A stretch of 34,322 nt of DNA from a virus (lineage: Duplodnaviria > Heunggongvirae > Uroviricota > Caudoviricetes): the IMG/VR virus record IMGVR_UViG_2675903330_000002. One strand, 5' to 3'. Positions within the stretch are counted from its first letter, which is position 1, and every line of letters starts with the position of its first letter. The notes beneath the pieces were generated by a model. That model saw only the letters and a list, made by a program, of their open reading frames with translations. It ran no database searches and had not been told where the DNA came from. Below are positions 16,651 through 32,726 of this stretch, piece after piece. The translations under genes and the position numbers were made by a program.

Positions 16651-16749
16651 CAACCGAATGCGCCCCGCGCCAGGGCGGCACGCCGGTCAGTGAGGGTGAA
16701 TCACCTGACACTGCACCGGCGTCCACCGCCCGACTTTTCAGAGGTAGTC

Positions 16750-17259
16750 ATGATGACGCTGATTATTCCGCGAAAGGAGGCTCCCGTGTCCGGTGAGGGT
16801 ACGGTGGTCATCCCGCAACCGGCAGGCGACGAGCCGGTGATTAAAAACACGTTCTTTTTTCCCGATATCGACCCGAAGCGCGTCCGGGAACGTATGCGCC
16901 TTGAGCAGACCGTCGCCCCCGCCCGTCTGCGTGAGGCCATCAAGTCAGGCATGGCTGAAACGAATGCGGAGCTGTACGAGTACCGCGAACAGAAAATTGC
17001 CGCCGGTTTTACGCGTCTGGCTGACGTCCCGGCGGACGACATCGACGGTGAAAGCATCAAAGTTTTTTACTACGAGCGCGCCGTGTGTGCGATGGCGACC
17101 GCATCGCTTTATGAGCGTTATCGCGGCGTGGATGCCAGTGCGAAAGGCGACAAGAAGGCCGACAGCATTGACAGCACCATTGATGAACTGTGGCGGGATA
17201 TGCGCTGGGCAGTGGCGCGCATCCAGGACAAGCCGCGCTGCATCGTGAGTCAAATCTGA
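16750..17259 (+). CDS. L: head completion/stabilisation protein (gpL-like), 169 aa
   Basis: Start at the ATG preceded by GAGGT (16750). Synteny. Confidence 0.8.
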   Translation: MMTLIIPRKEAPVSGEGTVVIPQPAGDEPVIKNTFFFPDIDPKRVRERMRLEQTVAPARLREAIKSGMAETNAELYEYREQKIAAGFTRLADVPADDIDGESIKVFYYERAVCAMATASLYERYRGVDASAKGDKKADSIDSTIDELWRDMRWAVARIQDKPRCIVSQI

Positions 17260-17462
17260 TGAAGACCTTTGCGCTACAGGGCGACACGCTCGATGCCATT
17301 TGTGTCCGGTATTACGGGCGCACTGAGGGCGTGGTTGAGACCGTGCTCGCCGCAAATCCGGGACTGGCTGAACTGGGGGCGGTGCTGCCGCACGGCATCG
17401 CCGTCGAACTGCCCGACGTTCAGACCGCGCCCGTGGCTGAAACTGTCAATCTGTGGGAGTAA
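17259..17462 (+). CDS. X: tail protein X-like, 67 aa
   Basis: ATGA overlap with the L stop. Size as P2 X. Confidence 0.7.
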   Translation: MKTFALQGDTLDAICVRYYGRTEGVVETVLAANPGLAELGAVLPHGIAVELPDVQTAPVAETVNLWE

Positions 17463-17465
17463 CGC

Positions 17466-17747
17466 ATGACAGCAGAAGAAAAAAGCGTCCTGTCGCTTTT
17501 CATGATTGGGGTGCTGATTGTTGTCGGCAAGGTGCTTGCCGGTGGTGAACCCATCACCCCGCGTCTGTTTATCGGGCGCATGTTGCTCGGTGGTTTTGTC
17601 TCGATGGTTGCCGGTGTTGTTCTGGTGCAGTTTCCTGACCTGTCACTGCCTGCGGTGTGCGGTATCGGCTCCATGCTGGGTATCGCCGGTTATCAGGTGA
17701 TTGAGATTGCCATTCAGCGCCGCTTTAAGGGCAGGGGGAAACAGTAA
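17466..17747 (+). CDS. Y: holin (gpY-like), 93 aa
   Basis: Small protein with hydrophobic helices (VLSLFMIGVLIVVGKVLAGG..., LLGGFVSMVAGVVLVQF) and a charged C-terminus, immediately upstream of the endolysin. Confidence 0.8.
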   Translation: MTAEEKSVLSLFMIGVLIVVGKVLAGGEPITPRLFIGRMLLGGFVSMVAGVVLVQFPDLSLPAVCGIGSMLGIAGYQVIEIAIQRRFKGRGKQ

Positions 17748-18244
17748 TGCCGGTAATTAACATGCATCAGAATATCGCCGCCTTTCTCGACATGCTGGCC
17801 GTGTCCGAAGGGACGGCGAACCATCCGCTGACGAAAAACCGGGGCTATGACGTGATAGTCACCGGACTGGACGGAAAGCCGGAAATCTTCACCGACTACA
17901 GTGACCACCCGTTCGCACATGGCCGACCGGCGAAGGTGTTTAACCGTCGCGGTGAAAAATCCACGGCCTCCGGTCGCTATCAGCAGCTTTACCTGTTCTG
18001 GCCGCATTACCGCAAACAGCTTGCCCTGCCGGATTTCAGTCCGTTGTCACAGGACAGACTCGCCATTCAGTTGATCCGCGAACGCGGTGCGCTGGATGAC
18101 ATCCGGGCGGGACGCATTGAGCGCGCCATTTCACGCTGTTGCAATATCTGGGCGTCCCTGCCGGGTGCCGGTTACGGTCAGCGTGAGCATTCACTGGAAA
18201 AACTGGTCACCGTCTGGCGTACCGCCGGCGGTGTACCGGCTTAA
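17747..18244 (+). CDS. K: endolysin / lysozyme (gpK-like), 165 aa
   Basis: Position in the lysis cassette and size as P2 K. Confidence 0.8.
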   Translation: MPVINMHQNIAAFLDMLAVSEGTANHPLTKNRGYDVIVTGLDGKPEIFTDYSDHPFAHGRPAKVFNRRGEKSTASGRYQQLYLFWPHYRKQLALPDFSPLSQDRLAIQLIRERGALDDIRAGRIERAISRCCNIWASLPGAGYGQREHSLEKLVTVWRTAGGVPA

Positions 18245-18258
18245 ACGGAGTAAACACC

Positions 18259-18684
18259 ATGAAGAAATTATCCCTTTCACTGATGCTGAATGTGTCGCTG
18301 GCGCTGATGCTGGCACTGTCCCTGATTTACCCGCAGAGCGTGGCCGTCAATTTTGTCGCCGCCTGGGCGATTCTGGCGACGGTTATCTGTGTGGTTGCCG
18401 GTGGTGTCGGCGTGTATGCCACTGAGTATGTGCTGGAACGCTACGGGCGGGAGCTGCCACCGGAATCGCTGGCCGTGAAGATTGTCGCGTCGCTGTTTTT
18501 GCAGCCGGTGCCGTGGCGCAGACGGGCGGCGGCTCTGGTGGTGATGGTGGCGACGTTTATCTCGCTGGTCGCTGCCGGGTGGATTTTTACCGCGCTGATT
18601 TACCTCGTGGCGTCGGTGTTCTTCCGGTTGATACGCACGGCCTGTCGTCAGCGTTTTGAGGGGCGGGAACCATGTCAAAGCTGA
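18259..18684 (+). CDS. lysA: LysA-like membrane protein (lysis timing), 141 aa
   Basis: Multi-helix hydrophobic protein following K. Size as P2 LysA. Confidence 0.7.
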   Translation: MKKLSLSLMLNVSLALMLALSLIYPQSVAVNFVAAWAILATVICVVAGGVGVYATEYVLERYGRELPPESLAVKIVASLFLQPVPWRRRAAALVVMVATFISLVAAGWIFTALIYLVASVFFRLIRTACRQRFEGREPCQS

Positions 18685-19097
18685 TGATTGTGCTGGTTGT
18701 GTTGTTATCACTGGCGGTGGCCGGTCTGTTTCTGGCGAAGCATGAAAACGCCAGCCTGCGCACCTTGCTGGACAGGGCGAACAACGTCGCCAACGGGCAG
18801 CAGACGACCATCACCATGCTGAAAAATCAGCTTCATGTTGCCCTCGCCAGAGCAGACAAAAACGAGCTGGCGCAGGTGGCACTGCGTCAGGAACTGGAGA
18901 ACGCGGCGAAGCGTGAAGCACAGCGCGAGAAAACCATCACGAGGTTACTGAATGAAAACGAAGATTTTCGCCGCTGGTACGGCGCTGGCCTGCCTGATGC
19001 TGTGCGCCGGTTGCACCAGCGCCCGGCCTGCACCGACGCCAGTGATTGTCGCCAACGCCTGCCCGAAAGTGAGCCTTTGCCCGATGCCGGGCAGTGA
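18672..19097 (+). CDS. lysB: LysB, Rz-like inner-membrane spanin, 141 aa
   Basis: N-terminal transmembrane helix (MSKLMIVLVVLLSLAVAGLFLA) followed by a coiled-coil-like periplasmic domain. Confidence 0.75.
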   Translation: MSKLMIVLVVLLSLAVAGLFLAKHENASLRTLLDRANNVANGQQTTITMLKNQLHVALARADKNELAQVALRQELENAAKREAQREKTITRLLNENEDFRRWYGAGLPDAVRRLHQRPACTDASDCRQRLPESEPLPDAGQ

Positions 19098-19242
19098 CCC
19101 GGAGACGAACGGCGATTTAAGTGCCGATATCCGACAGCTTGAGAACGCGCTGGCACGCTGTGCCAGCCAGGTAAAAATGATTAAACACTGTCAGGACGAA
19201 AACGATGCTCAAACCCGACAGCCTGCGCAGGGCGCTGACTGA
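18952..19242 (+). CDS. lysC: LysC, Rz1-like outer-membrane lipoprotein spanin, 96 aa
   Basis: Starts inside lysB in another frame. Lipoprotein signal with lipobox (...LMLCAGCTS) and a Pro-rich mature region. Confidence 0.7.
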   Translation: MKTKIFAAGTALACLMLCAGCTSARPAPTPVIVANACPKVSLCPMPGSDPETNGDLSADIRQLENALARCASQVKMIKHCQDENDAQTRQPAQGAD

Positions 19243-19672
19243 TGCCGTCACGGTGCTGAAAACCAGTCCCGAGATGCTGCGGATATTCGTTGATAACGGG
19301 AGTATTGCCTCCACGCTGGCGACGTCGTTGTCATTCGAAAAGCGTTACACGCTCAATGTGATTGTGACCGACTTTACCGGTGATTTTGACCTGCTCATCG
19401 TGCCTGTGCTGGCGTGGCTGCGGGAAAATCAGCCCGACATCATGACCACCGACGCAGGCCAGAAAAAGGGCTTCACGTTTTATGCAGACATCAACAATGA
19501 CAGCAGCTTTGATATCAGCATCAGCCTGATGCTGACCGAGCGCACGCTGGTCAGTGAGGTGGACGGCGCACTGCATGTGAAGAATATCCCGGAACCCACG
19601 CCGCCGGAGCCGGTCACCCGCCCGGTGGAGCTTTATATCAATGGCGAACTGGTGAGCAAGTGGGATGAATGA
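19205..19672 (+). CDS. R: tail completion protein R-like, 155 aa
   Basis: Synteny and size. Confidence 0.75.
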   Translation: MLKPDSLRRALTDAVTVLKTSPEMLRIFVDNGSIASTLATSLSFEKRYTLNVIVTDFTGDFDLLIVPVLAWLRENQPDIMTTDAGQKKGFTFYADINNDSSFDISISLMLTERTLVSEVDGALHVKNIPEPTPPEPVTRPVELYINGELVSKWDE

Positions 19673-20117
19673 GTTTAAGCGTTTTGAAGACCGGCTGACC
19701 GGACTGATTGAATCTCTGTCACCGTCAGGGCGTCGGCGACTGAGCGCCGAACTGGCGAAACGTCTGCGGCAGAGTCAGCAGCGTCGGGTGATGGCTCAGA
19801 AAGCCCCGGACGGCACACCCTACGCGCCACGCCAGCAGCAGAGCGCCAGAAAAAAGACTGGTCGTGTTAAGCGAAAAATGTTTGCGAAACTTATCACCAG
19901 TCGTTTTTTGCATATCCGCGCCAGCCCGGAACAGGCATCAATGGAGTTTTACGGCGGGAAGTCACCGAAAATCGCCAGCGTGCATCAGTTCGGTCTGTCG
20001 GAAGAAAACCGGAAAGACGGTAAGAAAATTGATTATCCGGCGCGTCCTCTGCTCGGCTTTACCAGTGAGGATGTGCAGATGATTGAAGAGATTATCCTGG
20101 CTCACCTCGACCGTTAG
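19665..20117 (+). CDS. S: tail completion protein S-like, 150 aa
   Basis: Synteny and size. Confidence 0.75.
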   Translation: MNEFKRFEDRLTGLIESLSPSGRRRLSAELAKRLRQSQQRRVMAQKAPDGTPYAPRQQQSARKKTGRVKRKMFAKLITSRFLHIRASPEQASMEFYGGKSPKIASVHQFGLSEENRKDGKKIDYPARPLLGFTSEDVQMIEEIILAHLDR

Positions 20118-20183
20118 TTGTGCCATTCCTGACACCTCATCGTCACATTGCCGCCGGTATGACCCGGCGGCATCCTTCCCGTT

Positions 20184-20819
20184 ATGAACACTCTCGCAAA
20201 TATTCAGGAACTCGCGCGCGCACTGCGCAACATGATTCGCACCGGCCTTGTCGTCGAAACCGACCTTAACGCCGGTCGCTGCCGTGTGCAGACCGGCGGC
20301 ATGTGCACCGACTGGCTTCAGTGGCTGACCCATCGCGCCGGACGTTCGCGCACGTGGTGGGCACCTTCCGAGGGGGAACAGGTGCTGATTCTGGCCGTGG
20401 GCGGTGAACTCGACACAGCGTTCGTTCTGCCGGGGATTTATTCCGGTGATAACCCCGCGCCGTCTGCGTCGGCGGATGCCCTGCATATCCGTTTCCCTGA
20501 CGGGGCGGTGATTGAGTATGAACCCGAAACCAGTGCACTCACGGTAAGCGGAATTAAAACGGCCAGCGTGACGGCTTCTGATTCTGTTACTACCACGGTG
20601 CCGGTGGTCACGGTGAAAGCATCAACCCGCGTCACCCTGGACACACCGGAGGTGGTCTGCACCAACAAGCTGACTACTGGCTCGCTGGAAGTGCAGAAGG
20701 GCGGGAAGATGCACGGCAACATCGAGCATACCGGTGGTGAACTCTCATCAAACGGTAAGGTACTGCATACCCATAAACACCCCGGCGATAGTGGCGGCAC
20801 AACAGGGGGACCTCTATGA
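20184..20819 (+). CDS. V: baseplate spike/assembly protein V-like, 211 aa
   Basis: Synteny and size. Confidence 0.8.
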   Translation: MNTLANIQELARALRNMIRTGLVVETDLNAGRCRVQTGGMCTDWLQWLTHRAGRSRTWWAPSEGEQVLILAVGGELDTAFVLPGIYSGDNPAPSASADALHIRFPDGAVIEYEPETSALTVSGIKTASVTASDSVTTTVPVVTVKASTRVTLDTPEVVCTNKLTTGSLEVQKGGKMHGNIEHTGGELSSNGKVLHTHKHPGDSGGTTGGPL

Positions 20820-21163
20820 CTGCGCGTTATCTCGGAATGAATCGCAGTGATGGCCTGACGGTCACTGACCTTGAGCATATCAGCCAGAGTATCGGCGATA
20901 TCCTGCGTACACCGGTCGGCTCACGGGTGATGCGTCGTGATTACGGCTCGTTGCTGGCGTCAATGATTGACCAGCCGCAGGCCCCGGCGCTTGAGTTGCA
21001 GATTAAGGCCGCCTGTTACATGGCGGTGCTGAAATGGGAACCCCGCGTCACCCTGTCATCCGTCACCACTGAGCGCAGTTTTGACGGGCGAATGACGGTC
21101 ACGTTAACCGGCCGGCACAACGACACCGGCCAGCCACTTTCGTTAACCATCCCTGTGAGTTGA
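20816..21163 (+). CDS. W: baseplate protein W-like, 115 aa
   Basis: Synteny and size. Confidence 0.8.
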   Translation: MTARYLGMNRSDGLTVTDLEHISQSIGDILRTPVGSRVMRRDYGSLLASMIDQPQAPALELQIKAACYMAVLKWEPRVTLSSVTTERSFDGRMTVTLTGRHNDTGQPLSLTIPVS

Positions 21164-21167
21164 AACC

Positions 21168-22076
21168 ATGCCGATTATCGACCTGAACCAGCTACCCGCA
21201 CCGGATGTGGTCGAGGAGCTGGATTTTGAAACCATTCTTGCTGAACGCAAGGCGACACTGATTTCCCTTTACCCGGAAGACCAGCAGGAGGCGGTCGCCC
21301 GTACCCTGACGCTGGAATCCGAGCCTATCGTCAAACTGCTGGAGGAAAACGCTTATCGTGAGCTTATCTGGCGTCAGCGTGTGAATGAGGCCGCACGGGC
21401 GGTAATGCTGGCCTGTGCCGCCGGTAATGACCTTGATGTGATTGGTGCCAATTACAACACCACACGCCTGATTATCACCCCGGCAGATGATTCGACCATC
21501 CCGCCGACACCGGCAGTGATGGAGTCTGACACCGATTATCGTCTGCGTATTCAGCAGGCGTTTGAGGGCTTAAGCGTCGCCGGGTCGGTGGGTGCCTATC
21601 AGTATCATGGTCGCAGTGCCGACGGGCGTGTCGCGGATATCTCTGTCACCAGTCCGTCTCCGGCCTGCGTCACCATCTCTGTGCTGTCACGTGAGAATAA
21701 CGGTGTGGCATCCGAAGACCTGCTGGCTGTGGTACGTAACGCCCTTAATGGCGAGGATGTCAGGCCGGTGGCCGACCGCGTGACCGTGCAGTCTGCCGTC
21801 ATCGTTGAATACCAGATAAACGCCACGCTTTACCTTTACCCTGGTCCCGAAAGCGAACCCATTCGCGCTGCCGCCGTGAAAAAACTGGAAGCGTATATCA
21901 CGGCACAGCACCGGCTGGGGCGTGACATCCGTCTGTCTGCCATTTATGCCGCTTTGCATGTGGAAGGTGTGCAGCGTGTCGAACTGGCTGCACCACTGGC
22001 CGACATCGTGCTCAACAGTACGCAGGCGTCTTTCTGTACCGAATACCGCGTCGTGACCGGAGGCTCGGATGAGTGA
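21168..22076 (+). CDS. J: baseplate protein J-like, 302 aa
   Basis: Synteny and size. Confidence 0.8.
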   Translation: MPIIDLNQLPAPDVVEELDFETILAERKATLISLYPEDQQEAVARTLTLESEPIVKLLEENAYRELIWRQRVNEAARAVMLACAAGNDLDVIGANYNTTRLIITPADDSTIPPTPAVMESDTDYRLRIQQAFEGLSVAGSVGAYQYHGRSADGRVADISVTSPSPACVTISVLSRENNGVASEDLLAVVRNALNGEDVRPVADRVTVQSAVIVEYQINATLYLYPGPESEPIRAAAVKKLEAYITAQHRLGRDIRLSAIYAALHVEGVQRVELAAPLADIVLNSTQASFCTEYRVVTGGSDE

Positions 22077-22680
22077 TTCGCGCCTGCTGCCGACCGGCTC
22101 ATCACTGCTTGAAGTCGCCGCCGCAAAAGCCTGTGCGGAAATTGAAAAAACGCCGGTCAGTATTCGTGAGCTGTGGAACCCGGATACCTGTCCGGCAAAT
22201 CTGCTGCCGTGGCTGGCGTGGTCATTTTCTGTTGACCGCTGGGATGATAAGTGGCCGGAAGCGACAAAACGCGCTGTTATCCGCGATGCGTATTTCATTC
22301 ACTGCCATAAGGGCACTATAGGCGCAATCCGGCGTGTGGTGGAGCCGCTCGGCTATCTGATTGAGGTGAGGGAGTGGTGGCAACTCAACGAGGAGCCGGG
22401 GACGTTCCGTATCGTTGTTGGCGTGCTTGAGCAGGGTATTACCGAGGAAATGTATCAGGAGCTGGAGCGCCTCGTTGCTGATGCAAAACCGGCAAGCCGC
22501 CATCTGACGGGACTGGCTATCAGTTTAAGTACAACCGGCAACATTTTTGCCGGTGCGGGATGCTATCACGGTGACGCCCTGACGGTTTATCCCTACACCC
22601 CGGAGGCCATTATTGTCGGAGGGGATTATTTCCCGGCCTCGGCCATTCATTTAATTGATAACCTGAGAGTAAACGCATGA
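22069..22680 (+). CDS. I: baseplate/tail protein I-like, 203 aa
   Basis: Synteny, immediately upstream of the tail-fibre gene. Confidence 0.75.
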   Translation: MSDSRLLPTGSSLLEVAAAKACAEIEKTPVSIRELWNPDTCPANLLPWLAWSFSVDRWDDKWPEATKRAVIRDAYFIHCHKGTIGAIRRVVEPLGYLIEVREWWQLNEEPGTFRIVVGVLEQGITEEMYQELERLVADAKPASRHLTGLAISLSTTGNIFAGAGCYHGDALTVYPYTPEAIIVGGDYFPASAIHLIDNLRVNA

Positions 22681-23894
22681 CAGTGAAATACTACGCCATT
22701 CTGACTAATCAGGGCGCGGCACGGCTGGCTAACGCGACGATGCTCGGCAGTAAGCTGAATCTGACGCAAATGGCCGTTGGTGATGCAAATGGTGTCTTGC
22801 CGACACCAGACCCGGCACAGACAAAACTGATTAACCAGAAACGCATCGCGCCGCTGAATCTTCTGAGTGTTGACCCGAACAACCAGAGCCAGATTATTGC
22901 GGAGCAAATCATCCCTGAGAACGAGGGCGGATTCTGGATCCGTGAGATTGGGCTTTATGATGATGAAGGCGTACTCATTGCGGTGGCGAACTGCCCGGAA
23001 ACGTACAAACCGCAGTTACAGGAAGGCAGTGGTCGTACCCAGACTATCCGCATGATTCTGGTTGTCACGAATACCGAAGCTATCACGCTGAAAATCGATC
23101 CGTCGGTGGTACTGGCGACCCGTAAATACGTGGATGATGAAGTCCTGGAATTAAAGCTGTATGTGGATGACCAGATGAGAAACCACATTGCCGCACAGGA
23201 TCCTCATACCCAGTATGCGCAGAAACATAATCCGACATTTACCGGAGAACCAAAAGCGCCGACGCCTGCCGCAGGAAATAACACCACGCGGATTGCGACC
23301 ACTGAGTTTGTTCAGGCCGCTATTACCGCTCTGATTAACGGTGCGCCAGCCACGCTGGACACACTGAAAGAAATTGCCGCAGCCATTAACAATGACCCGA
23401 AATTCAGTACCACCATTAACAATGCGCTGTCAGGTAAGCAGCCACTGGATGAGACGCTGACTCATTTGAGTGGAAAGGATGTTGCCGGTCTTCTCGCATA
23501 CCTTGGTTTGGGAGAAGCGGCAACGAGGAACGTCGGAACGGATACCGGGCAAGTACCAGATATGAGTAGTTTTACAACGGGGCACTCTGGAGCAGCAGAC
23601 TGGCCGAATCCTAAATCTGGATGGAGTAAGGGGCCGGATGGGGTAATTACACAATGGGGTATTTTCGGTTTCCCCGTTGGACAGACAGGGACGAATGTTG
23701 TTTTCCCGCTACCTTTCCCCGCGCGGGTCGAATCAATTACACTGACAATGGCAGATATACAGGAGTCTCTGCTTTCTCCAGCAACCATGCCTGCTTATGG
23801 AGTTAACTCAACTGGTACTTCAAGAACGGGTTTTACAGCCCGTATGTCAGGCGCCGGTGGGTTTAATCTTTGCTATATAGCGAAAGGGAGATAA
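22677..23894 (+). CDS. H: tail fibre protein (H-like), constant N-terminal part plus invertible C-terminal cassette, 405 aa
   Basis: N-terminus MTVKYYAILTNQGAARLANA is typical of P2/Mu-type tail fibres. A crossover site lies inside the gene at 23491-23516, about codon 272. Confidence 0.85.
   Translation: MTVKYYAILTNQGAARLANATMLGSKLNLTQMAVGDANGVLPTPDPAQTKLINQKRIAPLNLLSVDPNNQSQIIAEQIIPENEGGFWIREIGLYDDEGVLIAVANCPETYKPQLQEGSGRTQTIRMILVVTNTEAITLKIDPSVVLATRKYVDDEVLELKLYVDDQMRNHIAAQDPHTQYAQKHNPTFTGEPKAPTPAAGNNTTRIATTEFVQAAITALINGAPATLDTLKEIAAAINNDPKFSTTINNALSGKQPLDETLTHLSGKDVAGLLAYLGLGEAATRNVGTDTGQVPDMSSFTTGHSGAADWPNPKSGWSKGPDGVITQWGIFGFPVGQTGTNVVFPLPFPARVESITLTMADIQESLLSPATMPAYGVNSTGTSRTGFTARMSGAGGFNLCYIAKGR
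23491..23516. repeat. left crossover site for DNA invertase (hix/gix-like, 26 bp)
   Basis: TTCTCGCATACC-TT-GGTTTGGGAGAA is in inverted orientation to the site at 25351-25376 and shares the half-site TTCTCCCAAACC. Confidence 0.75.
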
Positions 23895-23898
23895 CAGA

Positions 23899-24342
23899 AT
23901 GAATAAAGTTAAAAGTGTTTACAGCCCGTCCGAAAATGCAATCTACAACGCAGCGCTATATGAAAGTTATATCAAGGAGGGGACATGGCCGCAGGATGGT
24001 ATTGAAATCAGCGATGAGGATGCTGTCAGATTTAATGGGGGAAATAAGCCAACAGGAAAAATGCTGGGAATGGTTTCAGGGACCCTTGCATGGGTTGATG
24101 AGCCGCCGCTTTCACCAGAACAGAAAATATCAGATGCAGAAAACATGAAAGCCACATTTCGTGCAAAAGCTGACAGTGAAATATCCTGGCGTCAGGATGC
24201 TGTTGATGCTGGTATCGCAACTGATGAAGAAACTTCAACTCTCACCCAATGGAAGAAATACCGTGTGCTGCTGATGCGTGTTGATACGTCAACAGCACCC
24301 GATATTGAATGGCCTACGCCTCCGGCAGCTCAGGCCAGATGA
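23899..24342 (+). CDS. tail fibre assembly protein (G/U-like), ON orientation, 147 aa
   Basis: Follows the tail fibre gene. Its C-terminus (...VDTSTAPDIEWPTPP) resembles that of the convergent paralogue. Confidence 0.75.
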   Translation: MNKVKSVYSPSENAIYNAALYESYIKEGTWPQDGIEISDEDAVRFNGGNKPTGKMLGMVSGTLAWVDEPPLSPEQKISDAENMKATFRAKADSEISWRQDAVDAGIATDEETSTLTQWKKYRVLLMRVDTSTAPDIEWPTPPAAQAR

Positions 24343-24907
24343 CATCCGGCGCGGTGCTGGTATCTGTTACCGTCACCGCGTCAATGTAATCCAGCACGGC
24401 GTTAAGTCGGGTTGTTTCTGCCTGCGTCAGCTTCCGTCCGGCCTGTAATTTCAGTTGAATCAGACTGATGGAAGCCATTGCAGCATCAATCAGCGACTGG
24501 CGCTGTGCTTCTGCTGCGTCTACTGCGGCACTATGCTGTGCCTCAGTATCTGTCACCCATTTCTCACCATCCCATTTATCGTATGGCGTTAACGGTGAAA
24601 GCGTGACATAACCGTCTTTGATGGCACCGATATAATCCACTGTAACAGCTGCGCCATTTTCGATTGAGTAAACAGTCTCATTGCGGTGGTCTTCTTCATG
24701 GCTCCATCCCTTACCCGTAAATACTGCCACTTTCCCCGGAATGTATTCGCCCGGGTCAATACCAGTGGAACAGGCGGGCATACTTACGCCAGTATTAATA
24801 TATTCATCAGACCAGCCCGTATACTCAGATGTTTCAGCATCATAATAAAAACAACGCATATCGCCCGGCACTGTAGCCAGCCCATTTTCATCAAAAACAG
24901 GTTTCAT
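24314..24907 (-). CDS. alternative tail fibre assembly protein (U'-like), OFF orientation, 197 aa
   Basis: Convergent with and overlapping the previous gene at 24314-24342. C-terminal motif ...TDTSTAPDVIWPELP. Confidence 0.7.
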   Translation of the reverse strand: MKPVFDENGLATVPGDMRCFYYDAETSEYTGWSDEYINTGVSMPACSTGIDPGEYIPGKVAVFTGKGWSHEEDHRNETVYSIENGAAVTVDYIGAIKDGYVTLSPLTPYDKWDGEKWVTDTEAQHSAAVDAAEAQRQSLIDAAMASISLIQLKLQAGRKLTQAETTRLNAVLDYIDAVTVTDTSTAPDVIWPELPEA

Positions 24908-25404
24908 TATTTAGCCCTCACCAGAAAGTTAAATGCAATATTTCGCGGTCTGACAGCAACAAAATTCACACCATCACCCACAGAGTTACTGGTGAAATTA
25001 AATCGTGAAAATCCTGGCTGATTTCCGGCGATGCCATCATGAAAGTTAATTGCGTGTCCCGCACCTTCGCCTATATTCCCGGCAAACTGAGAAAAGTTTG
25101 TAGCTGCCTGCCAGCTTAATAATTCGCGACCACCGTCTGCACCTCGCCCGTCATCCCAGATACGAATGAAATCACCGCGGGCTTCAGGTAATACCAGCGA
25201 AGGAAATACTTTCGCCAGCACAGGATAATCAGTGGCAGAGAATTTCGCGCCGCTGAACTTCAAAAACACCATACTGGACCAGCTGTCGATTACAGTATTT
25301 GGCATTGCAGCGGACGGCCAGAAGAACGGAACGCCAATAGCTGGAGCACCTTCTCCCAAACCAACGTTTATGAAAATGCAGAGATAATGGCTAACTGGCA
25401 TCAT
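24907..25404 (-). CDS. alternative tail-fibre C-terminal cassette (H'v), promoterless in this orientation
   Basis: The ORF's 5' end runs through the right crossover site and encodes ...NVGLGEGAP, matching the LGLGE junction in H. It has no independent start context. A functional product is expected only after inversion. Confidence 0.6.
   Translation of the reverse strand: MMPVSHYLCIFINVGLGEGAPAIGVPFFWPSAAMPNTVIDSWSSMVFLKFSGAKFSATDYPVLAKVFPSLVLPEARGDFIRIWDDGRGADGGRELLSWQAATNFSQFAGNIGEGAGHAINFHDGIAGNQPGFSRFNFTSNSVGDGVNFVAVRPRNIAFNFLVRAK
25351..25376. repeat. right crossover site for DNA invertase (hix/gix-like, 26 bp)
   Basis: TTCTCCCAAACC-AA-CGTTTATGAAAA lies immediately upstream of the invertase gene and resembles Hin/Gin/Cin crossover sites. 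Confidence 0.75.
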
Positions 25405-25431
25405 CCCCGGTTTTTATTCAGGGGGTTGATC

Positions 25432-26025
25432 ATGCTTATTGGCTATGTACGCGTGTCAACAAATGACCAGAACACCGATTTGCAACGTAGTGCGCTGAAC
25501 TGCGCGGGATGTGAGCGGATTTTTGAGGATAAAATCAGCGGCACTAAGTCCGACAGACCGGGGCTGAAAAAACTGCTCAGGACACTATCGGCAGGAGACA
25601 CGCTGGTAGTCTGGAAGCTGGACAGGCTGGGGCGTAGTATGCGGCATCTGGTCATTCTGGTTGAGGAGCTGCGCGAACGCGGCGTTAATTTTCGCAGCCT
25701 GACAGATGCTATTGATACCAGCACGCCGATGGGGCGTTTTTTCTTTCATGTGATGGGTGCCCTGGCTGAAATGGAGCGAGAACTCATTGTCGAGCGGACA
25801 CGCGCCGGACTGGAAGCGGCCAGAGCCAAAGGGCGTATTGGTGGCAGACGTCCGAAGCTCACCGCGAGTGAGTGGGAACAGGCAGGACGGTTGCTGGCTG
25901 CGGGTGAATCACGTCAACGCGTGGCGCTGATTTTTGATATTGGCCTGTCCACGCTCTATAAAAAATTCCCCTCATCAGCGGCAAAGAATAAATTGTGTCA
26001 TCCCTTAGCCAACCGGGACAAATAG
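25432..26025 (+). CDS. serine recombinase, Gin/Hin/Cin/Pin-family DNA invertase (about 197 aa)
   Basis: N-terminus MLIGYVRVSTNDQNTDLQR contains the catalytic Ser of the resolvase/invertase fold. C-terminal HTH ...GESRQRVALIFDIGLSTLYKKFP. ATG at 25432 preceded by AGGGGG. Occupies the slot where P2 has Z/fun. Confidence 0.9.
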   Translation: MLIGYVRVSTNDQNTDLQRSALNCAGCERIFEDKISGTKSDRPGLKKLLRTLSAGDTLVVWKLDRLGRSMRHLVILVEELRERGVNFRSLTDAIDTSTPMGRFFFHVMGALAEMERELIVERTRAGLEAARAKGRIGGRRPKLTASEWEQAGRLLAAGESRQRVALIFDIGLSTLYKKFPSSAAKNKLCHPLANRDK

Positions 26026-26084
26026 CCTGACATCTCCGGCACAACTGAAAATAACACTCACCCATTAACCACGGAGTTAAACGG

Positions 26085-27275
26085 ATGAGTGACTATCATC
26101 ACGGCGTGCAGGTGCTGGAGATTAACGACGGCACCCGCGTCATTTCCACCGTATCCACCGCCATTGTTGGCATGGTCTGCACGGCCAGCGATGCGGATGC
26201 GGAAACCTTCCCCGTCAATAAACCGGTGCTGATCACCAATGTGCAGAGCGCGATTGCAAAGGCCGGTAAAAAAGGCACGCTGGCGGCATCGTTGCAGGCC
26301 ATCGCTGACCAGTCAAAACCGGTCACCGTTGTCGTGCGCGTGGAAGACGGAACCGGCGACGACGAAGAAACGAAACTCGCGCAGACCGTTTCCAATATCA
26401 TCGGCACCACTGACGAAAACGGTCAGTACACCGGACTGAAAGCCCTGCTGGCGGCGGAGTCGGTAACCGGTGTTAAACCGCGTATTCTTGGTGTGCCGGG
26501 ACTGGACACCAAAGAGGTGGCGGTTGCACTGGCATCCGTCTGTCAGAAGCTGCGCGCTTTCGGGTATATCAGCGCATGGGGCTGTAAAACCATTTCCGAG
26601 GTGAAAGCCTACCGCCAGAATTTCAGCCAGCGTGAGCTGATGGTCATCTGGCCGGATTTCCTCGCATGGGATACGGTCACCAGTACCACCGCCACCGCGT
26701 ATGCCACCGCCCGTGCGCTGGGTCTGCGTGCCAAAATCGACCAGGAGCAGGGCTGGCATAAAACGCTGTCCAACGTCGGGGTGAACGGTGTTACCGGCAT
26801 CAGCGCATCTGTATTCTGGGATTTGCAGGAGTCCGGCACCGATGCTGACCTGCTTAACGAGTCAGGCGTCACAACGCTGATTCGCCGTGACGGTTTCCGC
26901 TTCTGGGGTAACCGTACCTGCTCTGATGACCCGCTGTTCCTCTTTGAAAACTACACCCGCACCGCGCAGGTGCTGGCCGACACGATGGCTGAGGCGCATA
27001 TGTGGGCGGTGGACAAGCCTATCACCGCAACGCTGATTCGCGACATCGTTGACGGCATCAATGCCAAATTCCGTGAGCTGAAAACAAACGGCTATATCGT
27101 GGATGCGACCTGCTGGTTCAGCGAAGAATCCAACGATGCGGAAACCCTTAAGGCCGGAAAACTGTATATCGACTACGACTATACCCCGGTGCCTCCTCTT
27201 GAAAACCTGACCCTGCGCCAGCGTATTACCGATAAATACCTGGCAAATCTGGTCACCTCGGTTAACAGCAATTAA
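26085..27275 (+). CDS. FI: tail sheath protein (FI-like), 396 aa
   Basis: Synteny and size. Confidence 0.85.
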   Translation: MSDYHHGVQVLEINDGTRVISTVSTAIVGMVCTASDADAETFPVNKPVLITNVQSAIAKAGKKGTLAASLQAIADQSKPVTVVVRVEDGTGDDEETKLAQTVSNIIGTTDENGQYTGLKALLAAESVTGVKPRILGVPGLDTKEVAVALASVCQKLRAFGYISAWGCKTISEVKAYRQNFSQRELMVIWPDFLAWDTVTSTTATAYATARALGLRAKIDQEQGWHKTLSNVGVNGVTGISASVFWDLQESGTDADLLNESGVTTLIRRDGFRFWGNRTCSDDPLFLFENYTRTAQVLADTMAEAHMWAVDKPITATLIRDIVDGINAKFRELKTNGYIVDATCWFSEESNDAETLKAGKLYIDYDYTPVPPLENLTLRQRITDKYLANLVTSVNSN

Positions 27276-27287
27276 GGAGCCTGACCG

Positions 27288-27806
27288 ATGGCAATGCCGC
27301 GCAAACTCAAGTTAATGAACGTCTTTCTGAACGGCTACAGCTATCAGGGCGTTGCAAAGTCCGTCACGCTGCCAAAACTGACCCGTAAGCTCGAAAACTA
27401 TCGCGGTGCGGGGATGAACGGCAGCGCACCGGTAGACCTCGGCCTTGATGACGATGCGCTGTCAATGGAGTGGTCGCTCGGGGGCTTCCCGGATTCGGTT
27501 ATCTGGGAGCTTTACGCCGCAACCGGCGTGGATGCCGTGCCGATTCGTTTTGCAGGCTCTTACCAGCGCGACGATACCGGCGAAACGGTGGCCGTCGAAG
27601 TGGTCATGCGTGGACGTCAGAAAGAAATCGACACCGGCGAGGGTAAACAGGGAGAAGACACCGAGTCGAAAATCTCCGTGGTCTGCACCTATTTCCGGCT
27701 GACGATAGACGGTAAGGAGCTGGTCGAAATCGACACCATCAACATGATTGAGAAGGTGAACGGCGTCGACCGGCTGGAGCAACACCGCCGCAATATCGGC
27801 CTGTGA
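27288..27806 (+). CDS. FII: tail tube protein (FII-like), 172 aa
   Basis: Synteny and size. Confidence 0.85.
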   Translation: MAMPRKLKLMNVFLNGYSYQGVAKSVTLPKLTRKLENYRGAGMNGSAPVDLGLDDDALSMEWSLGGFPDSVIWELYAATGVDAVPIRFAGSYQRDDTGETVAVEVVMRGRQKEIDTGEGKQGEDTESKISVVCTYFRLTIDGKELVEIDTINMIEKVNGVDRLEQHRRNIGL

Positions 27807-27862
27807 TTTTCATCCGGTCAGCCTGGCTGACCGGTTAACCCCGATTCAGAAGTGAGAAAACC

Positions 27863-28138
27863 ATGAACAAAGAAAACGTCATTACCCTGGACAATCCGGT
27901 CAAACGTGGTGAGCAGGTTATCGAACAGGTCACGCTGATGAAACCCAATGCCGGGACGCTGCGCGGTGTCAGTCTGGCTGCAGTCGCGAACTCCGAAGTC
28001 GATGCACTGATTAAAGTGCTGCCGCGCATGACGGCACCGATGCTGACCGAGCAGGAAGTCGCCGCGCTGGAACTGCCTGACCTTGTGGCGCTGGCCGGTA
28101 AGGTGGTCGGTTTTTTGTCGCCGAACTCGGTGCAGTGA
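27863..28138 (+). CDS. E: tail assembly chaperone E, 91 aa
   Basis: Small ORF between FII and T that ends just after a T-run slippery sequence. Confidence 0.8.
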   Translation: MNKENVITLDNPVKRGEQVIEQVTLMKPNAGTLRGVSLAAVANSEVDALIKVLPRMTAPMLTEQEVAALELPDLVALAGKVVGFLSPNSVQ

Positions 28139-28290
28139 CGTTTCCGAAAAATCTCTCGGTCGATGACCTGATGGCGGATGTGGCAGTGATATTTCACTGG
28201 CCGCCATCAGAACTGTATCCCATGAGCCTGACCGAACTCATCACATGGCGCGAAAAGGCGCTCCGGCGAAGCGGAAACACGAATGAGTAA
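27863..28290 (+). CDS. E+E' tail assembly chaperone made by -1 programmed ribosomal frameshift (about 141 aa)
   Basis: Slippery sequence G-GTT-TTT-TG at 28109-28117. The -1 frame is open from 28117 to a TAA at 28288-28290 (57 sense codons), which overlaps the start of T. Same architecture as P2 E/E+E'. Confidence 0.65.
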
Positions 28291-30730
28291 CAATGTAAAA
28301 TTACAGGTATTGCTCAGGGCTGTTGACCAGGCATCCCGCCCGTTTAAATCCATCCGCACAGCGAGCAAATCGCTGTCGGGGGATATCCGGGAAACACAAA
28401 AATCACTGCGCGAGCTGAACGGTCAGGCATCCCGTATTGAGGGATTTCGCAATACCAGTGCACAGCTCGCCGTGACTGGTCATGCACTTGAAAAGGCTCG
28501 GCAGGAAGCCGAAGCCCTTGCCACACAGTTTAAAAACACCGAACGTCCGACCCGTGCTCAGGCGAAAGTGCTGGAATCAGCAAAGCGAGCGGCGGAGGAC
28601 TTACAGGCGAAATATAACCGCCTGACGGATTCCGTTAAACGCCAGCAGCGGGAACTGGCCGCTGTGGGAATTAATACCCGCAATCTTGCACATGATGAGC
28701 AGGGGCTGAAAAACCGTATCAGTGAAACCACTGCCCAGCTTAACCGGCAGCGTGACGCGCTGGCGCGTGTCAGTGCGCAACAGGCAAAACTTAACGCAGT
28801 CAAACAGCGTTATCAGGCCGGCAAGGAACTGGCCGGAAATATGGCCTCAGTGGGCGCTGCCGGTGTGGGGATTGCGGCGGCGGGAACGATGGCCGGAGTT
28901 AAGCTGCTGATACCCGGTTATGAGTTTGCGCAGAAAAACTCAGAATTACAGGCTGTGCTCGGAGTGGCAAAAGACTCCGCCGAAATGGCCGCGCTCCGCA
29001 AACAGGCGCGCCAGCTCGGCGACAACACCGCCGCCTCGGCGGATGATGCAGCCGGTGCGCAGATTATCATTGCAAAAGCCGGTGGGGATGTTGATGCCAT
29101 TCAGGCGGCAACGCCGGTCACGCTGAATATGGCGCTGGCGAACCGTCGCACGATGGAGGAAAACGCCGCCCTGTTGATGGGGATGAAATCCGCCTTTCAG
29201 CTTTCAAACGATAAGGTCGCTCATATCGGGGATGTTCTCTCCATGACGATGAACAAAACCGCCGCCGATTTTGACGGCATGAGCGATGCGCTGACCTATG
29301 CCGCACCTGTGGCAAAAAATGCCGGTGTCAGCATTGAAGAAACCGCCGCAATGGTCGGGGCACTGCATGATGCAAAAATTACCGGTTCAATGGCGGGGAC
29401 GGGAAGCCGTGCCGTGTTAAGCCGCCTGCAGGCACCGACGGGAAAAGCATGGGATGCACTCAAAGAGCTTGGAGTGAAAACCTCAGACAGCAAAGGAAAC
29501 ACCCGGCCAATATTTACCATTCTGAAAGAAATGCAGGCCAGTTTTGAGAAAAACCGGCTCGGTACTGCCCAGCAGGCTGAATACATGAAAACTATTTTCG
29601 GGGAGGAGGCCAGCTCAGCCGCCGCCGTGCTGATGACTGCCGCCTCAACCGGAAAGCTGGACAAACTGACCGCTGCGTTTAAAGCCTCAGACGGGAAGAC
29701 CGCCGAGCTGGTAAATATCATGCAGGATAACCTCGGCGGTGACTTTAAGGAGTTTCAGTCCGCTTATGAGGCGGTGGGGACAGACCTGTTTGACCAGCAG
29801 GAAGGCGCACTGCGTAAGCTCACTCAGACGGCCACAAAGTATGTGTTAAAACTCGACGGCTGGATCCAGAAAAACAAATCACTGGCGTCAACCATCGGCC
29901 TCATTGTCGGTGGCGCGCTGGCGCTTATTGGCATCATCGGTGCAATTGGTCTTGTAGCCTGGCCGGTTATCACCGGCATCAATGCCATCATCGCGGCAGC
30001 AGGCGCAATGGGGGCAGTCTTCACGACGGTTGGCAGTGCTGTTATGACCGCCATCGGGGCTATTAGCTGGCCGGTTGTGGCCGTGGTGGCCGCAATTGTC
30101 GCCGGGGCGTTGCTTATCCGTAAATACTGGGAGCCTGTCAGCGCATTCTTTGGCGGTGTGGTTGAAGGGCTGAAAGTGGCATTTGCGCCGGTGGGGGAAC
30201 TGTTCACGCCACTTAAGCCGGTGTTTGACTGGCTGGGTGAAAAGTTACAGGCCGCGTGGCAGTGGTTTAAAAACCTGATTGCCCCGGTTAAAGCCACACA
30301 GGACACCCTGAACCGTTGCCGTGACACGGGGGTCATGTTCGGGCAGGCACTGGCTGACGCGCTGATGCTGCCGCTTAATACGTTCAACAAACTGCGCAGC
30401 GGTATTGACTGGGTACTGGAAAAACTCGGTGTTATCAACAAAGAGTCAGACACACTTGACCAGACCGCTGCCAGAACTCATGCCGCCACGTATGGCACCG
30501 GTGGTTATATTCCGGCGACCAGCTCTTATGCAGGTTATCAGGCTTATCAGCCGGTTACGGCACCGGCTGGCCGCTCTTATGTAGACCAGAGTAAAAACGA
30601 ATATCACATCAGCCTGACGGGTGGTACTGCGCCGGGGACACAGCTTGACCGCCAGTTACAGGATGCGCTCGAAAAATACGAGCGGGATAAACGTGCGCGC
30701 GCCCGTGCCAGCATGATGCATGACGGTTAA
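28283..30730 (+). CDS. T: tail tape-measure protein (T-like), 815 aa
   Basis: Large Ala/Gly-rich protein with an internal hydrophobic segment, downstream of the E/E' chaperones. Size as P2 T. Confidence 0.9.
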   Translation: MSNNVKLQVLLRAVDQASRPFKSIRTASKSLSGDIRETQKSLRELNGQASRIEGFRNTSAQLAVTGHALEKARQEAEALATQFKNTERPTRAQAKVLESAKRAAEDLQAKYNRLTDSVKRQQRELAAVGINTRNLAHDEQGLKNRISETTAQLNRQRDALARVSAQQAKLNAVKQRYQAGKELAGNMASVGAAGVGIAAAGTMAGVKLLIPGYEFAQKNSELQAVLGVAKDSAEMAALRKQARQLGDNTAASADDAAGAQIIIAKAGGDVDAIQAATPVTLNMALANRRTMEENAALLMGMKSAFQLSNDKVAHIGDVLSMTMNKTAADFDGMSDALTYAAPVAKNAGVSIEETAAMVGALHDAKITGSMAGTGSRAVLSRLQAPTGKAWDALKELGVKTSDSKGNTRPIFTILKEMQASFEKNRLGTAQQAEYMKTIFGEEASSAAAVLMTAASTGKLDKLTAAFKASDGKTAELVNIMQDNLGGDFKEFQSAYEAVGTDLFDQQEGALRKLTQTATKYVLKLDGWIQKNKSLASTIGLIVGGALALIGIIGAIGLVAWPVITGINAIIAAAGAMGAVFTTVGSAVMTAIGAISWPVVAVVAAIVAGALLIRKYWEPVSAFFGGVVEGLKVAFAPVGELFTPLKPVFDWLGEKLQAAWQWFKNLIAPVKATQDTLNRCRDTGVMFGQALADALMLPLNTFNKLRSGIDWVLEKLGVINKESDTLDQTAARTHAATYGTGGYIPATSSYAGYQAYQPVTAPAGRSYVDQSKNEYHISLTGGTAPGTQLDRQLQDALEKYERDKRARARASMMHDG

Positions 30731-30744
30731 GGAGGTGACGAAAA

Positions 30745-31224
30745 ATGATGCTCGCGTTAGGTATGTTTGTTTTTATGCGCCAGACGCTGCCACACCAGAC
30801 CATGCAGCGTGAATCAGATTATCGCTGGCCGTCAAATTCCCGTATCGGTAAACGGGATGCCTACCAGTTTCTCGGTGTTGGCGAGGAAAACATGACGCTT
30901 GCCGGTGTGCTTTATCCCGAACTGACCGGCGGCAAGCTGACGATGACCACGCTCAGGATGATGGCTGAGGAAGGCCGGGCGTGGCCGTTGCTGGATGGCA
31001 CCGGCATGATTTACGGCATGTATGTCATCAGCAGGGTGAGTGAAACAGGGAGTATTTTCTTTGCAGACGGCACACCCCGGAAAATTGATTTTACGCTGTC
31101 GCTCACCCGCGTTGATGAATCACTGGCCGCGCTTTATGGCGATATCGGTAAACAGGCGGAATCGCTCATCGGTAAGGCTGGCAGTATGGCGACCAGATTC
31201 ACGGGTATGATGGGGGCGGGATAA
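30745..31224 (+). CDS. U: tail protein U-like, 159 aa
   Basis: Synteny and size. Confidence 0.8.
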   Translation: MMLALGMFVFMRQTLPHQTMQRESDYRWPSNSRIGKRDAYQFLGVGEENMTLAGVLYPELTGGKLTMTTLRMMAEEGRAWPLLDGTGMIYGMYVISRVSETGSIFFADGTPRKIDFTLSLTRVDESLAALYGDIGKQAESLIGKAGSMATRFTGMMGAG

Positions 31225-32387
31225 TGCTGGATGCGCTGACATTTGATGCAGGCAGTACGCTGACGCCGGATTACATGCTGATGCTCGACAGCAGGGATAT
31301 TACCGGCAATATCAGCGACCGTCTGATGAGCATGACCCTGACAGATAACCGGGGCTTTGAGGCTGACCAGCTTGATATTGAACTGAACGATGCCGACGGG
31401 CAGGTCGGGCTGCCGGTTCGTGGCGCTGTCCTGACGGTGTATATCGGCTGGAAAGGTTTTGCCCTGGTATGCAAAGGGAAATTTACCGTTGATGAGGTTG
31501 AACACCGGGGCGCACCGGATGTGGTCACCATCCGCGCCCGGAGTGCAGATTTTCGCGGGACGCTCAATTCCCGCCGGGAAGGCTCCTGGCATGACACCAC
31601 GCTCGGTGCGATTGTTGAGGCGATAGCCACCCGTAACAGGCTGGAAGCCAGTGTCGCTCCGTCACTGGCCGGAATTAAAATCCCGCACATCGACCAGTCG
31701 CAGGAGTCCGATGTGAAATTCCTGACCCGTCTTGCTGAACGCAACGGCGGCGAGGTGTCGGTAAAAATGGGAAAACTGTTGTTTCTCAAAGCGGGGCAGG
31801 GGGTGACGGCCAGCGGTAAAAAAATCCCGCAGGTCACCATAACCCGCAGCGACGGCGACCGCCATCATTTTGCGATTGCTGACCGTGGAGCCTATACCGG
31901 CGTAACGGCAAAGTGGTTACACACCAAAGACCCGAAACCACAAAAGCAGAAGGTAAAACTGAAACGCAAAAAGAAAGAAAAACACCTGCGCGCACTGGAG
32001 CACCCGAAAGCAAAACCGGTCACGCAGAAGAAAGCGCCAAAAGTACCGGAAGCGCGCGAAGGTGAATACATGGCCGGTGAGGCTGACAACGTTTTTGCCC
32101 TGACCACGGTATATGCCACGAAAGCGCAGGCCATGCGCGCCGCTCAGGCGAAGTGGGATAAACTGCAACGGGGGGTGGCGGAGTTCTCCATCAGCCTGGC
32201 TACCGGTCGGGCTGATATTTACACGGAAACGCCGGTCAGAGTGTCAGGCTTTAAGCGCGTCATAGACGAGCAGGACTGGACAATCACTAAGGTGACACAT
32301 TTTCTGAATAATAGCGGCTTCACGACGTCCTTAGAGCTTGAGGTCAGGCTTTCTGATGTGGAGTACGAAACAGAAGATTATGAGTGA
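31224..32387 (+). CDS. D: tail protein D / late control protein D, 387 aa
   Basis: Synteny and size. ATGA overlap with U. Confidence 0.85.
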   Translation: MLDALTFDAGSTLTPDYMLMLDSRDITGNISDRLMSMTLTDNRGFEADQLDIELNDADGQVGLPVRGAVLTVYIGWKGFALVCKGKFTVDEVEHRGAPDVVTIRARSADFRGTLNSRREGSWHDTTLGAIVEAIATRNRLEASVAPSLAGIKIPHIDQSQESDVKFLTRLAERNGGEVSVKMGKLLFLKAGQGVTASGKKIPQVTITRSDGDRHHFAIADRGAYTGVTAKWLHTKDPKPQKQKVKLKRKKKEKHLRALEHPKAKPVTQKKAPKVPEAREGEYMAGEADNVFALTTVYATKAQAMRAAQAKWDKLQRGVAEFSISLATGRADIYTETPVRVSGFKRVIDEQDWTITKVTHFLNNSGFTTSLELEVRLSDVEYETEDYE

Positions 32388-32468
32388 TGTCTTTTGTTTA
32401 TCTGTTTGTTTTATAAGGATAAATTAACTAAAATGGCACTATCAACAAAACCGGAAGAGGTGCTCGCG

Positions 32469-32687
32469 ATGTTTCATTGTCCTTTATGCCAGCATGCCGC
32501 ACATGCGCGTACAAGCCGCTATATCACTGACACGACAAAAGAGCGTTATCACCAGTGCCAGAACGTGAATTGCAGCGCCACGTTCATCACTTATGAGTCG
32601 GTACAGCGATACATCGTGAAGCCGGGAGAAGTCCACGCCGTGAGGCCGCACCCGTTGCCGTCAGGGCAGCAAATTATGTGGATGTAA
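32469..32687 (+). CDS. ogr: Ogr late-gene transcription activator (C4 zinc finger), 72 aa
   Basis: MFHCPLCQHAAHARTSRYITDTTKERYHQCQNVNCSATF... carries CxxC-N22-CxxxxC. ATG preceded by GAGGTG. Last gene before attR, as in P2. Confidence 0.9.
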   Translation: MFHCPLCQHAAHARTSRYITDTTKERYHQCQNVNCSATFITYESVQRYIVKPGEVHAVRPHPLPSGQQIMWM

Positions 32688-32697
32688 TTACAAACAG

Positions 32698-32726
32698 AAA
32701 GCCCCTCAGTCGAGGGGCTTTTTTTG
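32698..32726 (+). terminator. rho-independent terminator after ogr
   Basis: 10-bp stem AAAGCCCCTC/GAGGGGCTTT with a 4-nt loop, followed by a T5 run. Confidence 0.85.

Follow-up and report, generated by a model that had tools for sequence, protein, structure and literature searches.

Invertible tail-fiber segments have been described in phage Mu (the G segment, inverted by Gin), in phage P1 (the C segment, inverted by Cin), and in the e14 element of E. coli K-12 (the P segment, inverted by PinE). In Mu and P1, the constant part of the fiber gene (Sc) lies outside the segment, the alternative 3′ parts and their companion genes (Sv-U and S′v-U′) lie inside it, and the invertase gene adjoins the segment from outside and reads away from it. 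Inversion has also been reported in P2-like prophages. Goldberg et al. (2014) observed reproducible inversion in culture for two P2-like prophages of enteropathogenic E. coli (EPEC) E2348/69, which contain two and three repeats, respectively (PMC4272514); a 2024 preprint found that a DNA invertase and inversion of adjacent genes are frequent in the Z/fun hotspot of P2; and Fin of the Salmonella P2-like prophage Fels-2 has been cited as a member of the same invertase family (PMC4272514, PMC12529663). Here we analyze the tail-fiber locus of IMG/VR record IMGVR_UViG_2675903330_000002, a stretch of 34,322 nucleotides (hereafter, the window) that appears to contain a complete P2-like prophage within a piece of E. 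coli chromosome. We put the probability at roughly 90% that the tail-fiber operon of this prophage contains a Pin/Gin/Cin-type switch for site-specific inversion that is functional or was so until very recently. A tail-fiber switch of this type in a P2-like prophage is already known, widespread, and of an ordinary kind, and sequences related to the present one occur in over half of the E. coli genomes that we searched.

The locus is made up of the following features, numbered from the first letter of the window:

22677-23894, plus strand: tail-fiber gene H, 405 amino acids (aa), with a Phage_tail_fib N-terminal domain and a Gp53-like_C domain
22677-23490, plus strand: Hc, the constant 5′ part of H, outside the invertible segment
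23491-23516: crossover site 1, inside H, TTCTCGCATACCTTGGTTTGGGAGAA, with halves TTCTCGCATACC TT GGTTTGGGAGAA, encoding ..LLAYLGLGE
23517-23894, plus strand: cassette A (Hv), the tip of H expressed in the present orientation, 125 aa
23899-24342, plus strand: tail-fiber assembly chaperone of cassette A, 147 aa (Caudo_TAP, E 9.8e-33)
24314-24907, minus strand: tail-fiber assembly chaperone of cassette B, 197 aa (Caudo_TAP, E 1.2e-26)
24907-25350, minus strand: cassette B (H′v), the currently silent tip, 147 aa, fused in frame to Hc after inversion in silico
25351-25376: crossover site 2, TTCTCCCAAACCAACGTTTATGAAAA, with halves TTCTCCCAAACC AA CGTTTATGAAAA, 81 bp upstream of the invertase ATG
25377-25431: spacer of 55 bases between site 2 and the invertase gene, which starts 56 bp past the end of the site
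25432-26025, plus strand: 197-aa serine DNA invertase (Pin/Gin/Cin/Hin family), its gene lying outside the segment and reading away from it

The arrangement is that of a fiber switch: the constant 5′ part of the gene is outside the segment, the alternative 3′ parts are inside it and each is in frame, a separate chaperone gene follows each tip, and the invertase gene adjoins the segment from outside. Hc contains the Pfam Phage_tail_fib N-terminal domain (residues 1-150, E 1.3e-62) and is 42% identical to residues 27-255 of P2 H. Cassette A carries the Gp53-like_C domain (H residues 320-404, E 1.4e-09). Cassette B had no Pfam domain at the default threshold (only Collar, E 0.061), and it matched the C-terminal ends of fibers in PHROGs (phrog_3100, E 5.5e-49; phrog_523, E 1.1e-39). 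No similarity between the two cassettes was detectable by BLASTP. The cassette A chaperone matched phrog_188 (tail fiber assembly protein, E 1.9e-51), and with Mu U and P2 G it shares 43% and 40% identity, respectively, over its C-terminal 63 aa; the cassette B chaperone matched phrog_105 (E 2.4e-84). The two chaperone genes are convergent, and their 3′ ends overlap by 29 nt.

When the segment was inverted in silico at the central dinucleotides of the two sites (23503/4 and 25363/4), the 405-aa H was replaced by an in-frame fusion of 427 aa (H′), and the sequences of both sites were left unaltered. The first 280 aa are common to H and H′, as both forms begin the site-encoded stretch with the same residues. 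The stop codon of H′ overlaps the start of the cassette B chaperone gene. A first-pass annotation, made from the letters of the window and without database searches, had proposed two inverted 26-bp sites, an in-frame fusion of the constant region of H to H′v across the recombinant junction, two convergent tail-fiber assembly genes, and an H much shorter than that of P2. Each of these proposals was borne out, the last by a length of 405 aa against 669 aa for P2 H. The same annotation had placed the locus where P2 has Z/fun, which lies between G and FI in P2, and the position is correct, since FI starts at 26085, just after the invertase gene.

The two crossover sites are imperfect palindromes of 26 bp with identical central dinucleotides, as in the Din family, and they lie in inverted orientation around a segment of 1.86 kb (1860 bp). 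The 14-mer TTCTCCCAAACCAA is common to both; the window contains it exactly two times, with one copy per strand, and 100 dinucleotide-preserving shuffles yielded no match. The sites also form the longest inverted repeat between 22600 and 26100 (27 nt, 81% complementary, with arms 1832 nt apart). Perfect identity between the arms is limited to 15 bp (CTTCTCCCAAACCAA), which is too short for efficient RecA recombination. Searches of the window for a third crossover site with the 14-mer, and with a 12-mer at up to two mismatches, found none, because the relaxed search gave five matches where 2.8 are expected by chance; the extra matches were the outer half of site 1 and distant sequences at 1007 and 6695. 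A shufflon-like multi-site system, such as Min of p15B or the three-repeat EPEC type, was rejected, as the window has only two sites.

The invertase is a small serine recombinase with a resolvase-type domain (Pfam Resolvase, E 2.5e-52) and a C-terminal helix-turn-helix (HTH_7, E 1.1e-12), and it is close to characterized members of the Din family: it is 87.3% identical to PinE of e14 over 181 aa and 78.8% identical to Mu Gin over 184 aa, so the Gin-family assignment made in the first-pass annotation holds. It also matched phrog_125 (DNA invertase, E 8.4e-100) and the Mu Gin structure 3uj3 (E 1.1e-94). The open reading frame (ORF) is intact. The active-site serine, on which the earlier proposal had been made to depend, is present: the nucleophile Ser9 lies in VRVSTNDQ and is aligned with Ser9 of Gin (3uj3, being the S9A form, has A at that position).

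The most direct evidence for inversion comes from public genomes. A region of 3349 bp covering the locus had, in the orientation of the window, no full-length match in phages (best coverage 55%) or in 5,426 complete E. coli genomes (best coverage 81%). After inversion in silico, the same 3349 bp matched E. coli PigCaeca_1 in one piece, with 99.0% identity and 100% coverage. Compared with the window as it stands, PigCaeca_1 aligned in three blocks: 11013-23517 in forward orientation (97.5%), 23500-25367 on the reverse strand (99.7%), and 25350-34322 in forward orientation (100.000% over 8973 bp). Because of this three-block alignment, the breakpoints are placed inside both sites (within 23500-23517 for site 1). 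The fusion ORF encoding H′ is intact in PigCaeca_1, with 427 aa that are 98.1% identical to the prediction. In a second case, one prophage occupies the same chromosomal position in E. coli E5 and E7, and its 1.79-kb segment (99.94% identical between the two strains) is flipped between identical 26-bp sites.

A census of the four possible junctions, in which 201-nt probes were searched against the 5,426 complete E. coli genomes, gave the following counts:

Hc joined to cassette A: 9 genomes
Hc joined to cassette B: 67 genomes
Cassette B joined to the invertase region: 253 genomes
Cassette A joined to the invertase region: 30 genomes

All four junction types are present, and cassette A is found both expressed (9 genomes) and silent (30 genomes). 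Altogether, 3019 of the 5,426 genomes match the region, with a median of two places per genome. Judged by these comparisons, the segment is present in both orientations in nature. The first-pass annotation had named, as the observation that would count against it, a locus found in one orientation only, and PigCaeca_1 provides the opposite one.

Among known systems, the closest relative of the locus by sequence is the Pin/e14 P segment rather than Hin or Gin. The e14 element likewise has a fiber 5′ part, two cassettes with convergent tfa genes, and an invertase, and its P segment is of similar size (1797 bp, against 1860 bp in the window). Site 2 has the same sequence as the invertase-proximal e14 site, site 1 is identical to its e14 counterpart in the inner half, and positions 25349-25364 of the window are the CCTTCTCCCAAACCAA repeat. 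This is the 16-bp repeat at which PinE and PinQ have been found experimentally to invert e14 (PMC12529663). The tips of the two elements differ, however, and the match at the DNA level is confined to the site/invertase region and to a tfa stretch, the 3′ 316 nt of the cassette B chaperone gene being 93% identical to the tfaP/tfaE overlap region of e14. Furthermore, e14 is a defective lambdoid remnant whose fiber gene lies outside any complete virion module, whereas the prophage in the window is P2-like and apparently complete.

The first-pass annotation had classed the switch with Mu G and P1 C. The architecture is indeed the same, but the locus is most closely related to Pin and the e14 P segment, and an arrangement of this kind is nothing out of the ordinary in P2-like phages. 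The Mu G segment is also larger (~3 kb, against 1.86 kb), the sites in the window differ from gix at several positions, and the backbone is P2-like rather than that of Mu or P1. The EPEC E2348/69 prophages, pro483, the “P2” prophage of O157:H43 T22, and the prophages of E. coli W and Fels-2 have invertible loci on the same backbone and at the same H-FI position, where pro483, “P2” of O157:H43, and others are annotated with two fiber pieces, two chaperones, and a DNA invertase; the sole difference from the window is the combination of cassettes. The three-repeat EPEC prophage has four variants, whereas the element in the window has two sites. The H segment of Salmonella resembles the locus in its Din-family invertase (Hin) and its 26-bp sites, and the Hin enhancer, which is located within the 5′ coding region at ~100 bp from the nearer site, has a putative counterpart in the window, but hin lies inside its own segment, and inversion of the H segment flips a promoter for the flagellin genes rather than the 3′ ends of genes.

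Inversion by relatives of this enzyme involves Fis and a recombinational enhancer, and the first-pass annotation had suggested that one be sought in the 5′ portion of the invertase gene. The candidate features are as follows:

25454-25516: putative Fis-dependent recombinational enhancer in the 5′ coding region of the invertase gene, proposed from position and homology
25454-25468: Fis-like 15-bp core 1, TGTCAACAAATGACC, at ATG+29, its center 97.5 bp from the center of site 2
25502-25516: Fis-like 15-bp core 2, GCGCGGGATGTGAGC, at ATG+77, its center 145.5 bp from the center of site 2

In a motif scan, the centers of the two cores were 48 bp apart, and Fis-like cores were found at the same two positions in Mu gin. 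A spacing of 48 bp between Fis sites was reportedly described for Hin by Johnson, Glasgow and Simon in 1987. The geometry in the window also agrees with that of the published Hin enhancer, which is 65 bp long, has a Fis site at each end, and lies ~100 bp from hixL (PMC3798978). Both cores are kept in all 68 of the distinct homologous genes that were compared, and synonymous diversity among these 68 sequences is minimal over codons 1-15, with a second dip at codons 22-30. McLean et al. identified K47, R48, and K51 in basic helix B of Hin, and Q151, R154, and L155 in helix 1 of its DNA-binding domain, as residues of Fis/enhancer-dependent invertases (PMC3798978). Residues K46, K47, R50, Q150, R153, and L154 of the invertase in the window align with them, and the alignment with Gin shows the same residues. 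These features are suggestive of a Fis-dependent enhancer in the 5′ region of the invertase gene, on which inversion may depend.

The switch would then operate as follows. The late operon would transcribe Hc (residues 1-280 of the fiber) and run into the 1.86-kb invertible segment. In the present orientation it would yield H with a gp53-like tip (405 aa), followed by the 147-aa chaperone; in the inverted orientation it would yield H with an unrelated, collar-type tip (427 aa), followed by the 197-aa chaperone. By analogy with related enzymes, dimers of the invertase would bind both sites, which would join the Fis-bound enhancer (which would lie within the initial 85 nt of the invertase gene and ~98 bp away from site 2) in an invertasome. 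Ser9 would cleave each site at its central AA/TT dinucleotide; a 180-degree rotation of one subunit pair would follow, and then religation of the DNA. That the two tips are unrelated is suggestive of different receptor or host specificities, and, if Mu and P1 are a guide, exchange of the fiber tip probably changes host range. As there would be two alternating tips, a population of lysogens would therefore release particles of two receptor specificities, and the element would be an example of bet-hedging on host range by a temperate phage.

Several observations weigh against a working switch of this kind, or against parts of it. The window holds a single orientation, and the evidence for flipping is comparative and comes from other genomes. 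The difference in host range between the two tips is assumed from Mu and P1. A scan of 23300-26200 with the sigma-70 consensus found no promoter, including none for the invertase gene (terminator-like matches in the same interval were weak and uninformative). Constraints on translation initiation, or recombination, could equally explain why synonymous diversity falls toward the 5′ end of the invertase gene. Finally, the degenerate Fis motif is weakly specific, with 240 matches in the window and four pairs at 48 bp where 1.7 are expected. The search for an enhancer found two Fis-like cores at a Hin-like distance, but the pair of motifs has little specificity; because the motif by itself is not discriminating, the enhancer call is based on position and homology.

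Related loci bear on which enzyme carries out the inversion. In a set of 79 related viral contigs, from which 131 sites were compared, most contigs have a half-site ~80 bp (78-81) upstream of the invertase start, and about 50 of the 79 have an inverted partner ~1.6-2.5 kb further upstream. The central AA is invariant in 131/131 sites. The same cassettes occur in either orientation in different contigs (L047 versus L050; L035 versus L034 and L036). Trans action by other resident Pin-type invertases is plausible, and it could be argued that flipping is mainly the work of such enzymes (PinE of e14, and PinQ and PinR of Qin and Rac), with the prophage's own gene dispensable. The identity of site 2 with the e14 site and the match of the inner half of site 1 would fit this proposal, as would the presence of matching regions at a median of two places in so many E. 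coli genomes. Cross-action within the family is documented, and PinQ, which is 38% identical to PinE, inverts the e14 sequence efficiently (PMC12529663). Trans action is compatible with a working switch in the window, however, and does not exclude it, and the site and the invertase gene have been kept together at ~80 bp across related loci. This fixed spacing implies selection on the cis pair, and we consider it unlikely that the resident gene is dispensable.

It is less likely still, and in our view very improbable, that the locus is a frozen relic, in which the architecture is inherited, the invertase, its expression, or the enhancer is now defunct, and the differences in orientation are old. 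The failure of the sigma-70 scan to find a promoter upstream of the invertase, the putative status of the enhancer, and the single orientation of the window are all compatible with a relic. Against it, the invertase ORF is intact with all of the residues that were checked, both sites of the window are the commonest allele of their respective class among the related loci, and near-identical prophages differ only by the flip (segment identities of 99.7% and 99.94%), which argues for recent events. The weakest alternative, that the flips are assembly artifacts or the products of RecA recombination between short inverted repeats, is highly improbable: inverted repeats can mislead assemblers, and the finished assemblies that we compared are of unknown read support, but the arms are perfectly identical over just 15 bp, the breakpoints coincide with Din-type 26-bp sites with an invariant central dinucleotide, a dedicated invertase adjoins the segment, the event recurs in independent genomes and viral contigs, and inversion has been verified by PCR or quantitative PCR in related systems (PMC4272514, PMC12529663).

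The comparisons with related loci also provided some information on how the segment has been exchanged. Over window positions 21900-27500, contig L035 (IMGVR_UViG_2700989285_000008) is 96-100% identical to the window throughout the segment, and merely 68-81% identical in the flanking Hc, invertase, and sheath genes. This contrast suggests that P2-like phages with only a distant relationship exchange the segment as a module, with boundaries at or near the crossover sites. The identity between PigCaeca_1 (L003) and the window is likewise a mosaic, with 97.5% to the left of the segment and 100.000% from 25350 to the end of the window, which suggests that recombination took place recently, its breakpoint lying at the invertible segment or close to it. 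In three other contigs (L030, L059, and L066) the half-site is present three or four times, and two invertase starts are found in L030. Such counts hint at multi-site (shufflon-like) or duplicated forms, comparable to the three-repeat EPEC locus.

The silent cassette is also part of a minus-strand reading frame that begins outside the segment:

25399-25404, minus strand: double ATG of an 18-aa leader, MMPVSHYLCIFINVGLGE, which lies outside the segment and reads through site 2

The leader joins the silent cassette in a complete ORF (24907-25404, minus strand) of 165 aa, which would become 143 aa after inversion, and in which Pfam found no domain. The leader MMPVSHYLCIFINVGLGE is conserved across divergent spacer variants (related loci L007-L085). 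The NCBI Prokaryotic Genome Annotation Pipeline (PGAP) labels the equivalent leader-cassette ORF a “gp53-like domain-containing protein.” The combination of leader and silent cassette resembles the StfE/StfE2 arrangement of e14, in which StfE2 has been reported to block adsorption of T2. By analogy, the orphan silent tip, if made as StfE2 is claimed to be, could mask a surface receptor of the lysogen, and inversion would then toggle phage exclusion in addition to the host range of the virion; we mention this second role as a speculation with little chance of being correct.

PGAP annotations of these loci have to be read with caution. In RefSeq, PGAP marks the silent cassette as an “incomplete” pseudogene, and it splits H′ of PigCaeca_1 into two partial pseudogenes despite the intact 427-aa ORF. 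The annotations concerned are as follows:

L001, 3001-3834 and 5114-5573: annotated as pseudogenes
L003, 16824-18107: pseudogene annotation
L087, 15001-16506: pseudogene annotation

Pseudogene labels at invertible genes look like a systematic annotation artifact: pipelines call the silent cassette, and sometimes an intact flipped H, a pseudogene, and assemblies freeze one arbitrary orientation.

The surroundings of the locus are those of a P2-like prophage (Peduovirus). The features to which we refer are as follows:

584-1597, minus strand: integrase, with an integrase domain
22069-22680: gene I, with a Tail_P2_I domain
26085-27275: tail sheath gene FI, downstream of the invertase gene
32793-32878, minus strand: CyaR small RNA gene, in the right host flank, with yegQ adjoining

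The window has the gene order of P2, which is int, C, cox ... A, hotspot, Q P O N M L ... V W J I H, FI FII E T U D, ogr; it also has a P2-type att core and encodes integrase, tail sheath, and Tail_P2_I domains. Two direct copies of a 27-bp repeat, AAAAAATAAGCCCGTGTAAGGGAGATT, are present at 478-504 and at 32790-32816, ~32.3 kb apart, and they mark the ends of the prophage, with the core of a P2-type att site; the right copy of AAAAAATAAGCCCGTGTAAGGGAGATT overlaps the 3′ end of the host CyaR gene. A repressor-like helix-turn-helix protein is encoded between the repeats, in addition to the integrase. The window is colinear with the annotated P2-type prophage of PigCaeca_1, which includes a replication gene, portal, terminase, capsid, lysis, baseplate, and tail genes, and ogr.

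The pF promoter region of the window is near-identical to that of P2. The invertase ORF extends into this sequence (25993-26084) by its last ~10 codons and the stop codon, and in P2 the corresponding sequence is the region of the pF late promoter and activator site upstream of FI. The right junction between the invertase module and the P2 backbone is therefore placed at ~25993, and the C-terminal extension of the invertase beyond the ends of Gin and Pin is encoded by promoter DNA.

The old/tin hotspot of P2, which corresponds to window positions 6408-11013 between the replication gene and the portal gene, holds two reverse-transcriptase (RT) defense modules, with these ORFs:

6920-8590, minus strand: hotspot ORF
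8931-10205, plus strand: hotspot ORF
10202-10909, plus strand: hotspot ORF

One module is an AbiP2-type defense-associated RT (PADLOC AbiP2, E 4.7e-160). The other is a type IV retron, with an RT (RT_IV, E 1.4e-176) and an effector (2TM_IV, E 4.1e-85); a scan of 8450-9050, near the retron RT, with Rfam found no match to a retron msr/msd RNA. In the position of these RT modules, PigCaeca_1 carries DprA and a hypothetical gene.

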